NCBI GenBank assembly: GCA_041664245.1
Contig: JBAYLC010000001.1
Span: forward strand, 152,654 to 188,584
DNA length: 35,931 nt
DNA from: Minisyncoccota bacterium
GTDB lineage: Bacteria > Patescibacteriota > Minisyncoccia > UBA6257 > 2-01-FULL-56-20
Reading direction: 5' to 3'
Shown: piece after piece, positions 14,777-34,492 of the stretch
Numbering within the stretch: the first letter of the stretch is position 1
Layout: every line of letters starts with the position of its first letter
Position numbers and translations under genes: made by a program
The notes under the pieces: generated by a model
The model's database searches: none
What the model saw: only the letters and a program-made list of their open reading frames with translations
What the model was told of the DNA's origin: nothing

Positions 14777-14785
14777 TTATCCACA
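14777..14785 (+). promoter_or_regulatory. Consensus DnaA box
   Basis: TTATCCACA, 18 nt upstream of the -35 at 14804. Confidence 0.5.
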
Positions 14786-14803
14786 AGAAATTAGATTTTT
14801 TGA

Positions 14804-14831
14804 TTGACGTGTTATTCGCGAGAAGTATAAC
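14804..14831 (+). promoter_or_regulatory. Promoter for the fibre-locus leader
   Basis: TTGACG (14804-09), 16 nt, TATAAC (14826-31). Confidence 0.6.
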
Positions 14832-14937
14832 ATGATTCGGTACGAGTTTAAGTTGGTTTTGGTCTCGTTGGGGAAACCGAGGCAGAAGCGACTATGATTA
14901 TGCACGGCTTCTCTAGCGAGAAAATTTCGTGGTCACT

Positions 14938-14989
14938 AAAAGGGTTGTCCTTTGGGTTTTGTACTAAACCTAAAAGACAACCCTTTTTT
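14938..14989 (+). terminator. Strong intrinsic terminator inside the 5' leader (possible attenuator)
   Basis: aaaagggttgtc-c-tttgggttt/aaacctaaa-a-gacaacccttttt. Confidence 0.75.
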
Positions 14990-15324
14990 GTTGCGAAAAA
15001 ATAATTTTCAAAGGTCGATTACAAAATAATTAATAAAAAACTAGCCAACAACAAGTTTCGTCTTGTAATAATCAATAATTTCATCCGGCACTAAATGAGC
15101 CAATTCTAATAATTTGTTGCAGCTAAATCTTTCTCTCGTAAAAGCGGGGAAAAGATTTGGCCGTAACACGGTCAAAATAATTATTTTTACCCGATTATAC
15201 CAATAATTGGGTAAGGTAAAAAGGTCGCCCCCAGTACTAATTTTAAATTAGTCATGGGGTAAAGAAGATAAAAAACAATTAGCCCTTTAATAGTCGAAAC
15301 AAATTTTAGGGCAATAAAATACAT

Positions 15325-16641
15325 ATGAAAAAATTATTAGTAATATTCGGAGCGGTGACGATCGCCATAGTGGGCGCTTCAATGTTTGCCGCTTTTGAAG
15401 CGCACGTTATAAACGTAACCGCGACGATCGAGAACGCTCTTACGGTTCCAACCACGCCGATTCTTTTTGGCACGGTTTTCCCGCAGGAACAAATTGATAA
15501 GCATTTAAGTGTTGCGCTTTCTAGTTCTTTTTTAGCCGAGAATCAAGGTCGGGTTGATACAGTGAATTATATGATTCGCCAGAAACCGAAATGTGGTTTT
15601 ACAACAGACAACGGTAAGAATTTGATCGGCGAGACCAGGACCGGAGAAGTTGTTATTGATGCCAATAGCCCTGGTGGTTATAGGATTGACTGTGGTGTAA
15701 ATCCAAATCTAAACCCGACGACGGATACTGGAGCAGTAATACAAGGAACATGGGGAGTTCTCCCATCTCTTTGTCCTTATCTCTCAAAACATTCCAGTAA
15801 CGCCACCGACGTAAACGTTCCGGCTTTCCATCAGCCGTTCTCGGTTGCTAATGGTGTAGTTAGTTGGACTGAGGCTGAAGGAACTCTCTCAAAACCAAAT
15901 CAAACTTCGGCTGATTGGACAATCGATTTGAAGGTGCCATGTTTCGGTGGTCATTGCGCCCAAGATTGGAATGATTTCGTGAAAAAAATTAATCCACTCG
16001 CCGATCCGGCAGCATATACTCAGCCAATTGCAAACGAACATAAAGTTTTCGGTTGCGATCTTTGGGTTGAAACGACTGGCGTTAATAGTAAGTCGCGTGA
16101 AATTCCTCTCTACAAAGAAACTGGTGATTCTTCAACAACGCTCGGTCCTATTCAGGGTCACGTGACCTACGATACGACCAGTGCCGGCAAATTAGCCGGA
16201 ACGATTAAAGTGGATTCAGGTTCTCTTGTCGCCGACCACAACTACGTGCTTGTACTTAATGGGCCTCGTGGCGGTGGAGTTTTACCCGGAAACACCAATG
16301 GTCTTTTGGCCGATTGGGCTTGTTTGCAACCTACACCAGGTCTAAGCAACGGCTGGGATGGTTGGTGGGTTAATCAGACCGACAATACCGGCGCAACAAA
16401 GTGTGAGCTCGCTCCAGGTGATGTTAAACTCGAAGGTTATTACAACTTCCAATTTAACGTTACAGGTGCCCAACTCGAAGCAGGATATTCTTTCAATCCT
16501 GCCCTCCCCGTTGGAACGTATAGTGGGGTTCAATTCTTAGTAAAGGATTTAAATACCGCTTTGTGGGATACCGTTCTTGAATACCCGGGTGTTGGTGAAA
16601 CAGACAGCACGCCGAGTGAGTTTAGTTTCGTTGTAAATTAA
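15325..16641 (+). CDS. Secreted beta-rich protein with a SipW-type signal; putative major fibre subunit (TasA/CalY-like)
   Basis: MKK + hydrophobic core + FA|AFEAHVINVTATIE, then ILFGTVFPQE; Cys motifs; second C-terminal domain; no C-terminal anchor. Confidence 0.7.
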   Translation: MKKLLVIFGAVTIAIVGASMFAAFEAHVINVTATIENALTVPTTPILFGTVFPQEQIDKHLSVALSSSFLAENQGRVDTVNYMIRQKPKCGFTTDNGKNLIGETRTGEVVIDANSPGGYRIDCGVNPNLNPTTDTGAVIQGTWGVLPSLCPYLSKHSSNATDVNVPAFHQPFSVANGVVSWTEAEGTLSKPNQTSADWTIDLKVPCFGGHCAQDWNDFVKKINPLADPAAYTQPIANEHKVFGCDLWVETTGVNSKSREIPLYKETGDSSTTLGPIQGHVTYDTTSAGKLAGTIKVDSGSLVADHNYVLVLNGPRGGGVLPGNTNGLLADWACLQPTPGLSNGWDGWWVNQTDNTGATKCELAPGDVKLEGYYNFQFNVTGAQLEAGYSFNPALPVGTYSGVQFLVKDLNTALWDTVLEYPGVGETDSTPSEFSFVVN

Positions 16642-21787: not shown

Positions 21788-21882
21788 AATCCTTCTTCAA
21801 TTAGAGAGCGAAATCCAGCTCCAAAGGTATGGAGCTGGAAAAATCCCAAAAGGTCGTATCCTAATTTGAATTACTAATTAAA

Positions 21883-23108: not shown

Positions 23109-23157
23109 GTGGCGGAAAGTGGATAATTCTGGGGATAAAGTGCCACTTCTGGGGATA
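23109..23157 (+). promoter_or_regulatory. Probable MraZ-binding repeats upstream of the dcw cluster
   Basis: GTGG/CTGGG units with about 10-nt period at 23109, 23119, 23129, 23140 and 23149. Confidence 0.6.
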
Positions 23158-23233
23158 AGATTTGCCACAAGCCATTAGGGACTAATAAAGAAATCTACTA
23201 ACACCCATCGCCAAAAACCTATCACCTAACGAA

Positions 23234-32144: not shown

Positions 32145-32220
32145 ACAACCTACTAGAATTGATATAAAATTTAAGGATCATACGTATCAGGTTTCTTACT
32201 GGTATTTTCAAATAAATGTT

Positions 32221-32358
32221 CGTCTAAGTGGCTGTAAATTGAAAGCCCGCTTTGATGGCTACAAGCTGAGCACTCATTCAACAAACAGAATTGGAGGTCA
32301 CCACTTGTAGCCATCAAAACGGACAAATAAGAGGTCGTCACTTACAGCCACTTAGGCG
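32221..32358 (+). ncRNA. Candidate 6S-like rod RNA
   Basis: 17-bp closing stem, 13/23-nt central bubble, perfect 15-bp inner stem, imperfect apical stem. Confidence 0.35.
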
Positions 32359-32364
32359 AGTAAA

Positions 32365-33664: not shown

Positions 33665-33705
33665 AAGAAGATTTTTTATTTTCTTGCTTTTCCCACGAGT
33701 GAGTT

Positions 33706-33830
33706 TTCTTTTTCGGAGAAGCTATCGGAGCTCTAGCGAGCTTGGTCTCCGCCAAAGCGGAGTTGCTAGAGCGAGATGCAGGCGCGTTTTGCCGCTGGAA
33801 GCAAAACGACGCCGGTTCTCCGAAAAAGAA
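33706..33830. repeat. Large multi-stem inverted-repeat element
   Basis: Perfect 15-bp outer stem enclosing two internal hairpins. Confidence 0.65.
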
Positions 33831-34012
33831 GGCGAACGAGATATCCACAGTTTTCATTTTCATTCTCGTTCGAAGTGTTAAAATTAAATAAGAAAAATAT
33901 TTTACAAAGTAAGTCCGAATTTTTTTCGCACTTACTTTGAAAAGGTCGATTCACTTTTGCATTAATTTTTTAAAAATTTTTTGTGAAAGTAAAACATTTC
34001 GATCGTATCTAA

Positions 34013-34078
34013 ATGAAAAAGAAAAAAGCAACGAAAAAGACTGCAAAGAAAAAGACGACCAAGAAGAGAAAGAAATAG
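34013..34078 (+). CDS. Unannotated 21-aa Lys-rich peptide MKKKKATKKTAKKKTTKKRKK
   Basis: Translated by hand; extended -10 TGtTAAAAT at 33876-84; terminator at 34087-34123. Confidence 0.7.
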   Translation: MKKKKATKKTAKKKTTKKRKK

Positions 34079-34086
34079 TCTGAATG

Positions 34087-34123
34087 AAAAACCGCTCCGG
34101 CAATCGTCGGGGCGGTTTTTTTT
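34087..34123 (+). terminator. Terminator after the Lys-rich peptide gene
   Basis: aaaaaccgctccg...cggggcggtttttttt. Confidence 0.85.
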
Positions 34124-34156
34124 GCTAAAAAAGCCTAAATTATCTATAATCAAGCC

Positions 34157-34492
34157 ATGAAAATAAGCATTAAAGCTACCAATTTAGACCTAACCCCCAG
34201 TTTAAAGATCTATATCAACTCAAAATTATCCGGCATTGATAAGCTTGTGAAGCGATTTGATGAGGGTGGTGATGTCCAACTCCGTCTTGAAATTGGTCGG
34301 ATCACCAAGCACCACCACAAAGGCGATGTTTTTATGGCTGAAATCAATCTCGATCTTCCTGGAAAAGTTTTACGCAGTGAAGTAAGCGGTCCCGATGTCC
34401 ACCAAGTTCTTGATGAAGCAAAAAATAAACTTCGATTAGAAATTGAAAAATTTAAATCCCGATCTAATCCGAAGGCGAAACTAAAAGGGTAA
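34157..34492 (+). CDS. hpf: Ribosome hibernation promoting factor (short HPF/RaiA)
   Basis: MKISIKATNLDLTPSLKIYI, HHHKGDVFMAEINL, LDEAKNKL; promoter TTGCTA-17-TATAAT. Confidence 0.9.
   Translation: MKISIKATNLDLTPSLKIYINSKLSGIDKLVKRFDEGGDVQLRLEIGRITKHHHKGDVFMAEINLDLPGKVLRSEVSGPDVHQVLDEAKNKLRLEIEKFKSRSNPKAKLKG

Follow-up and report, generated by a model that had tools for sequence, protein, structure and literature searches.

An open reading frame of only 21 codons, most of them specifying lysine, lies directly upstream of hpf in the stretch of Minisyncoccota DNA analysed here (35,931 nucleotides, hereafter the window). So short and so biased a frame raises the question of whether it is a gene at all and, if so, whether it is the peptide, the act of translation or the transcript itself that matters to the cell.

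The polyK reading frame and its transcription signals

The gene order in this part of the window is murB, a small membrane protein, the unit under study (referred to as polyK), hpf (34157) and SecA (34512). The gene at 34157 was recognised as hpf by its Pfam domain Ribosomal_S30AE (E = 3.7e-13), and it encodes a short-type HPF of 111 aa. The polyK ORF (34013-34078, plus strand) runs from an ATG at 34013 to a TAG at 34076-78 and comprises 21 codons and the stop; its translation, MKKKKATKKTAKKKTTKKRKK, contains 13 K, 1 R, 4 T, 2 A and 1 M, with a net charge of +14. Frames of this kind (starting with ATG, at least 12 aa long and with at least 55% Lys) were found in none of 300 dinucleotide-preserving shuffles of the window.

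The frame is embedded in a compact set of transcription signals, all on the plus strand. A DnaA-box-like 9-mer, ATATCCACA (33841-33849), identical to TTATCCACA at eight of nine positions, is located 29 nt 5' of the -10 hexamer of a putative promoter (33857-33884), for which the promoter scan returned TTTTCA-16-TAAAAT with a TG upstream, i.e., a weak -35 (TTTTCA), a 16-nt spacer and an extended -10 (TGtTAAAAT, 33876-33884). The 5'UTR contains a hairpin (33906-33938) with the arms AAAGTAAGT and ACTTACTTT, followed by the conserved element AAAGGTCGATT (33941-33951, core GGUCG), 69 nt before the polyK ATG. An intrinsic terminator (34087-34123) follows the ORF, its A-tract beginning 8 nt past the stop; it consists of this tract, a 12-bp G+C-rich stem (34090-34101/34106-34117), the loop AATC and eight T (34116-34123), and it was not flagged by a simple terminator scan, being visible in the fold (z = -4.3 for 33885-34125). 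The sequence-only reading of this locus had described the ORF, the extended -10, the leader made of a hairpin and an octamer, and the terminator 8 nt after the stop, and every one of these sequence statements holds. The same applies to the leader motif that it held to be common to polyK and rplL: the octamer AAAGGTCG stands 3' of the polyK leader hairpin (33941-48) and again 3' of a hairpin in the rplL leader (at 21849, 34 nt before rplL). This motif also precedes murB and the gene at 15325.

Outside the polyK unit, the promoter scan placed the hpf promoter at 34122-34150 (plus strand; TTGCTA-17-TATAAT, 10/12 matches). Its -35 overlaps the T-run of the polyK terminator and the last T of its -10 lies 6 nt before the ATG at 34157, so that the hpf mRNA of the window would be leaderless. 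A Shine-Dalgarno-like sequence occurs within 20 nt of the start in only about 3 of the 38 window genes, and the absence of such a sequence before the polyK ORF is therefore uninformative; the anti-SD motif has been reported as lost in about half of Parcubacteria (PMC9297842).

Some other elements of the window are recorded here as observations in their own right. The murB leader (32160-32364, plus strand) has a design like that of the polyK and rplL leaders, with an extended -10 (TGATATAAAAT), a 5'UTR of about 190 nt, long nested helices and two motifs of the GGUC type, namely GGAGGTCA and, 32 nt 5' of the ATG, GAGGTCGT. A second unit (14777-15019, plus strand) carries an exact TTATCCACA at 14777, the promoter TTGACG/TATAAC and a structured transcript of ~155 nt (14838-14992; z = -5.4) with a strong terminator at its end, and the 11-mer AAAGGTCGATT of the polyK leader recurs at 15009-15019. 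It contains no polyK ORF, has no meaningful Rfam match, and may represent either a small RNA or a long 5'UTR belonging to the gene at 15325, which encodes a secreted protein. Directly upstream of the DnaA-box-like site, at 33701-33837 (plus strand), a G+C-rich three-way-junction RNA is predicted (fold z = -5.5), which has no Rfam match and shows compensatory changes in 33 of its 44 predicted pairs among seven sequences. A covariance model places it just upstream of the polyK box in eight other loci, and the loci L041 and L025 contain two copies each, which differ from these in strand and context; judging from these occurrences, it looks like a multi-copy structured element. L010 (the same as L007) has no small membrane-protein gene at this place; the interval from murB to the three-way-junction RNA (about 2200-2490, numbered as in L007) is instead taken up by ~300 nt of non-coding sequence that is apparently structured and has no Rfam match.

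Conservation of the frame in related loci

Related loci were collected in two ways. In the first sample, relatives of Hpf were aligned and 80 species-level loci, of 5 kb each, were fetched from Parcubacteria/Paceibacteria genomes. The polyK unit was found in 32 of the 81 related hpf loci: in 30 of them, in L060 (where the ORF is partly masked) and in L089, as an ATG-started, Lys-rich ORF of 9-35 aa adjoining hpf. Lys-rich ATG ORFs are nearly absent from the remainder of the 5-kb loci. In the nearest non-identical relative, whose Hpf is 66% identical, the peptide is MKKRKKAVKKTAKKKTTKKRKTAKRKR, with the same promoter, leader motif and terminator. The second sample was independent of hpf, since the pattern used to scan metagenome contigs left everything free except the upstream box, a spacer and the codons M-A-x-K-K. 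At least 82 polyK units, with ORFs of 11-41 aa, were present among the 120 metagenome contigs listed, and ~19 other contigs listed carried rpmH genes of G+C-rich Proteobacteria with dnaA adjoining; the box pattern thus retrieved true dnaA-rpmH intergenic boxes, which served as a positive control.

Genome loci and metagenome matches listed give at least 97 distinct peptides of 9-41 aa (median 20), composed of K (55%), A (22%) and R (8%), the rest being V/T/S/G/P. Aromatic residues and Cys are absent and a single acidic residue occurs in the 97 peptides; the net charge ranges from +7 to +25. Position 2 is Ala in 87 of the 97, and the C-terminal ends are mostly Lys/Arg-rich (KRA, KKR, KKK, KRR). 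What is conserved across the family is just the composition, the N-terminal MA(A)KKK and the Lys/Arg-rich C-terminal end. The family spans well over a hundred ultra-small groundwater bacteria and is conserved across a large part of the Parcubacteria/Paceibacteria radiation.

The possibility that the ORF is incidental to an A-rich RNA without coding function, be it a small RNA or a purine tract, has to be weighed against these comparisons. A short, separately terminated transcript with a structured and conserved 5' part would agree with such a role, and so would the decayed unit of L031 (about 418-600), which keeps the box, promoter, purine tract and terminator and has no ATG. The pattern of substitutions, however, is that of a translated frame. 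Among 16 disjoint same-length pairs, picked on nucleotide identity alone, differences at codon positions 1/2/3 number 36/45/94 (chi-square p = 6e-8), and in peptide-matched pairs 103 codon differences are synonymous vs 33 non-synonymous, AGA -> CGA among them. Moreover, ATG, frame and stop are kept in 79 of the 82 metagenome units listed, and in the remaining three the ORF runs off the contig end; the broken frames or missing ATG/stop that were expected of homologues of a mere A-rich tract were not encountered among them. Outside these 82 units, L131 carries a single-base shift in an A-run of the polyK frame, and one copy in the inverted-duplicate contig L130 has the same shift; these frameshifts could be either true slippage or assembly errors.

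The choice of codons points in the same direction. The Lys codon AAG accounts for 52% in polyK ORFs vs 26% in the flanking genes (Wilcoxon p = 6e-7), and the placement of AAG and AAA breaks the A-runs: the mean longest run is 5.9 bases, vs 9.9 expected from background codon usage and 7.1 after shuffling of the codons within each ORF, and runs of at least nine A occur in 2 of 102 ORFs vs 26-73 expected. The codon order keeps A-runs at 5-6 bases, as expected from selection against poly(A) slippage. Taken together, four independent signals (the third-position excess, the AAG excess, the short A-runs and the open frame) show that the frame is under selection for translation in the homologues, and the near-exclusion of aromatic and acidic residues also speaks against an incidental ORF. 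A purely non-coding role is thus very unlikely, with a probability close to negligible. Judged by its conserved units in relatives, each with its own promoter, leader and terminator, polyK is a real, conserved and hitherto unannotated gene of an oligolysine family, as had been supposed when it was described as a gene overlooked by length cut-offs.

The DnaA-box-like site, the leader and the neighbouring genes

A TTATCCACA-type box is present on the coding strand, 22-30 nt before the -10, in all 22 genome loci with enough upstream sequence, and these loci supply 22 of the 49 TTATCCACA-type boxes in 382 kb. The -10 of the related loci, usually of the extended type (TGnTAnAAT, TATAAT or TATACT), follows the box at 22-30 nt, and in group B loci (see below) TTTTCCACA abuts TTGACA. 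In the relatives as in the window, a 9-mer with at most one mismatch thus holds a fixed position relative to the promoter. We infer from the consensus alone that DnaA may bind the polyK box. A replication origin at the polyK locus was considered and ruled out by the single box, by the lack of a GC-skew switch and by the lack of dnaA in polyK loci. Two further arrangements of similar sites were observed. The polyK-hpf intergenic region of L089 (2075-2430) contains two perfect TTATCCACA boxes, one facing each gene, and a third, near-perfect box is located past the polyK terminator. In the window, the minus strand 5' of mraZ (23234) matches TTATCC(A/C)C(T/A) three times at short intervals (23118-23158); the matches amount to TGGGGATAA-type direct repeats, which look like MraZ operator repeats rather than DnaA boxes.

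The second constant feature is found in the 5'UTR, where R-GG(U/C)CG-R occurs in 30 of 30 genome loci with upstream sequence and the core GG[TC]CG in 75 of 79 metagenome units listed; the stricter RGGYCG[AGT] occurs in 38 units vs 1.8 expected from shuffles. The element lies 24-90 nt before the ATG and reads GGCCG in group B and AGUCG in a few loci. In a crude density comparison RGGTCGR was not enriched outside polyK leaders, and its reading as a general intergenic signal of the clade was discarded. The fetched loci were also searched for a 16S 3' end with which GGUCG might be complementary, and they contain none. In many units a helix, with arms that vary between species, closes a loop or junction, and GGUCG occupies the 3' edge of this loop or junction. 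Since helices near GGUCG are only modestly longer than at random control anchors (7.5 vs 6.7 bp) and the window case is unconvincing, the idea that the element always stands beside a closing helix was dropped, and the GGUCG-helix structure is considered just suggestive.

Of the 23 genome loci that are not bicistronic, 21 have a hairpin with a T-run 3' of the ORF, as have 60 of the 69 metagenome units listed, and its distance from the stop is variable (5-71 nt). Where this terminator is present, hpf or secA usually has a -10 box of its own, ending mostly 6-7 nt before the ATG, and both in the window (34122-34159) and, generally, in L010-L209 the -35 region of hpf/secA overlaps the T-run of the preceding terminator. 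From the position of the -10 box, it is probable that hpf and secA are transcribed separately from polyK, as leaderless mRNAs. The exception is represented by the eight species of group B, in which polyK and hpf are bicistronic, with neither a terminator nor a separate hpf promoter between them; the spacers measure 15-18 nt in five of them and 49 and 128 nt in two, the ORF of L060 being partly masked.

As to the neighbours, the gene following polyK is secA in at least 58 and hpf in at least 11 of the metagenome units listed, hpf lies upstream of polyK in at least six, and 58 of the 82 units listed have no adjoining hpf. In L089, polyK and hpf are divergently oriented, and the polyK unit has all its parts (box, promoter, GGUCGG loop, MAAKKKKAAKKKKR, terminator). 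The attention that had been given to hpf as a meaningful neighbour is not justified by these counts. Because the downstream gene mostly has its own -10 and the L089 unit points away from hpf, the polyK unit is, as far as gene arrangement tells, an autonomous gene between murB and secA and not an hpf leader, with hpf as an occasional neighbour.

The constant position beside secA/hpf would also fit a cis-regulatory role, in which expression of the downstream secA or hpf-secA would be controlled, at the level of transcription or translation, by the translating of the Lys-rich frame and not by its product; this could happen through the terminator abutting the downstream promoter or through the opening of a helix around the stop codon. 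Of the 79 complete units listed, 69 lie directly upstream of secA or hpf and on the same strand (69 of the 71 with an identifiable downstream gene; of the other ten, eight are followed by too little sequence to tell, and in two no downstream gene is identifiable), the median gap between the unit and secA is about 80 nt, and the T-run of the terminator extends into the downstream -10/-35 region. In E. coli, the monitoring ORF secM precedes secA. In addition, the last codons form a helix of at least 6 bp with the sequence just past the stop in 69 of 110 units vs 41 expected; in these relatives, a pyrimidine run within the first 28 nt past the stop pairs with the last codons and the stop codon is placed in the hairpin loop, so that the helix could couple translation to RNA structure. 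This helix is, however, absent from the window and from L010. The downstream genes have their own, positionally conserved -10, which is lacking only in the eight bicistronic group B loci, and the L089 unit is an exception to the common orientation among genome loci. The window fold shows no antiterminator alternative, on which ground classical attenuation was set aside as improbable; the distance from stop to terminator is variable. On balance, a regulatory role of the frame itself appears improbable, though not to the degree of a purely non-coding one.

Proposed function and comparison with known systems

The reading that we prefer, with a probability of roughly 45%, is that polyK is an autonomous translated micro-gene whose oligolysine peptide would be the functional molecule, a polycationic binder of nucleic acids, with DNA as the favoured target and rRNA or the ribosome as the alternative. 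The sequence comparisons indicate that polyK is transcribed from the extended -10 just 3' of the conserved DnaA-box-like site, into an mRNA with a 5'UTR of roughly 120 nt carrying the conserved GGUCG element, that it is translated without a Shine-Dalgarno sequence, as apparently are most genes of this genome, and that an intrinsic terminator of its own closes the transcript. The gene that follows, hpf in the window and secA in most relatives, has a separate and probably leaderless transcript, its -10 box being located 6-7 nt 5' of the ATG. The peptide, in which the Lys residues are spaced by Ala, Val, Thr, Gly and Ser, would most likely bind and compact nucleic acids, preferably chromosomal DNA, through its charge, serving as a polyvalent counter-ion in the manner of protamines or H1 tails, and the DnaA box at the promoter would tie the supply of peptide to replication. 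Condensation of DNA by cations with a charge of +3 or more is well established in polyelectrolyte chemistry. DNA is favoured as the target because length and sequence drift while composition and charge are held, and because the promoter carries a DnaA box; the variable length (9-41 aa) and the low complexity would likewise fit a protamine-like condenser better than a fixed ribosomal protein; the sequence-only reading had proposed a protamine-like condenser and a ribosome-associated peptide as alternatives. Against a function of the peptide count the members of 9-12 aa, a very small size for a product that is stable in the cell. A bolder form of the proposal is less likely than not. It takes free oligolysine peptides under DnaA-box control to be the principal polycation among the macromolecules of these ultra-small cells, one that would compact the chromosome and perhaps also stabilise the small number of ribosomes. 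If it were true, polyK genes of 9-41 codons would be among the shortest conserved protein-coding genes known, and the peptides would be a genetically encoded, replication-coupled counterpart of protamines or polyamines.

The ribosomal alternative sees in the peptide a lineage-specific tiny ribosomal protein or a cofactor of short HPF, similar to RMF, that would bind rRNA and stabilise or silence ribosomes. The association with hpf, in the window and in 32 of the 81 hpf loci, the bicistronic arrangement of group B and the DnaA box that hpf has for itself in L089 argue for it. Tiny basic ribosomal proteins such as bS22, bL37 and bTHX are typically missed by annotation. Moreover, uS19 of Parcubacteria bears a clade-specific Ala/Lys-rich C-terminal extension of about 25 aa (PMC9297842), which indicates that tails of this kind are in use on Parcubacteria ribosomes. 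On the other hand, most polyK units have no adjoining hpf, and a peptide of 9-41 aa without fixed positions is unlike the proteins that fill an rRNA pocket. The C-terminal tail of HPF does not differ in length and charge between loci with and without a polyK unit, so that the idea of HPFs without polyK compensating by longer or more basic tails was abandoned, and a polyK-HPF fusion occurs in none of the eight hpf homologues inspected. A ribosome-associated peptide is thus unlikely, although less so than a regulatory frame.

Whichever target the peptide may have, the polyK family is invisible to standard annotation despite its conserved promoter, leader and terminator. A nucleic-acid counter-ion would bear on DNA packing and ribosome protection in tiny cells with few known nucleoid proteins, and the DnaA box provides a regulatory hypothesis open to testing, which is rare for organisms that hardly ever come into culture. 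The ORFs also represent a clean natural case of codon arrangement avoiding poly(A) slippage and a useful benchmark for small-ORF prediction.

Searches in databases and in the literature gave the family no known relative. The window peptide had no match in Pfam, five family peptides had none in NCBIfam at E up to 10, one 35-aa member had none in a PDB sequence search, and a homologue search with a 41-aa member returned nothing at E up to 10; none of ten family peptides was found when looked up as exact matches in a set of ~15 billion predicted proteins, and Rfam gave nothing for the polyK region and 20 related loci. In the literature, no description of a lysine-rich small ORF near hpf or in CPR bacteria was found, the only relevant paper being PMC9297842, nor was any ribosome structure or ribosome proteomics of Paceibacteria. 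On these comparisons, polyK matches no known family, bTHX, bS22, bL37 and Hc1 included, and in kind it resembles the tiny basic ribosomal proteins and the Lys/Ala-rich DNA condensers.

With the attenuators of the trpL/pheL type, pyrL and SecM, polyK shares a short ORF rich in one residue, a terminator and a conserved gene downstream, which in the case of SecM is the same gene, secA. It differs from these leader peptides in its unconditional-looking terminator, in the promoter of the downstream gene, in its orientation flips and in the lack of a signal sequence or arrest motif of the SecM kind. RMF, the gammaproteobacterial partner of short HPF, is also small and basic, and in the window polyK likewise adjoins a short-type HPF; however, the two are not homologous, and the consistent association with hpf expected of an RMF-type factor is missing. 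The ribosomal proteins bTHX, bS22, bL37 and eL41 are close to polyK in being of 24-33 residues, extremely basic and RNA-binding, and in having escaped gene callers until they were seen in structures. Nevertheless, they have a fixed length, conserved Arg-rich sequences and specific contacts, whereas the polyK products are low-complexity Lys/Ala peptides of 9-41 aa with neither conserved length and positions nor any similarity to a ribosomal family or PDB chain. The uS19 extension belongs to the same clade and has the same composition and a similar length; it is, however, covalently part of a ribosomal protein that the window does not encode, whereas polyK is free-standing, between murB and secA.

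The likeness extends, finally, to protamines, the C-terminal domain of histone H1, chlamydial Hc1/Hc2, AlgP and the mycobacterial HupB tail, which have in common with polyK the AKK/KKA/KKV composition, the high charge and the tolerance of length. The low complexity, the high positive charge and the near-absence of acidic residues that mark Lys/Ala-repeat condensers are all present in the polyK family. Those condensers are proteins of 100-200 aa or tails on a folded domain, whereas the product of polyK would be the tail alone.
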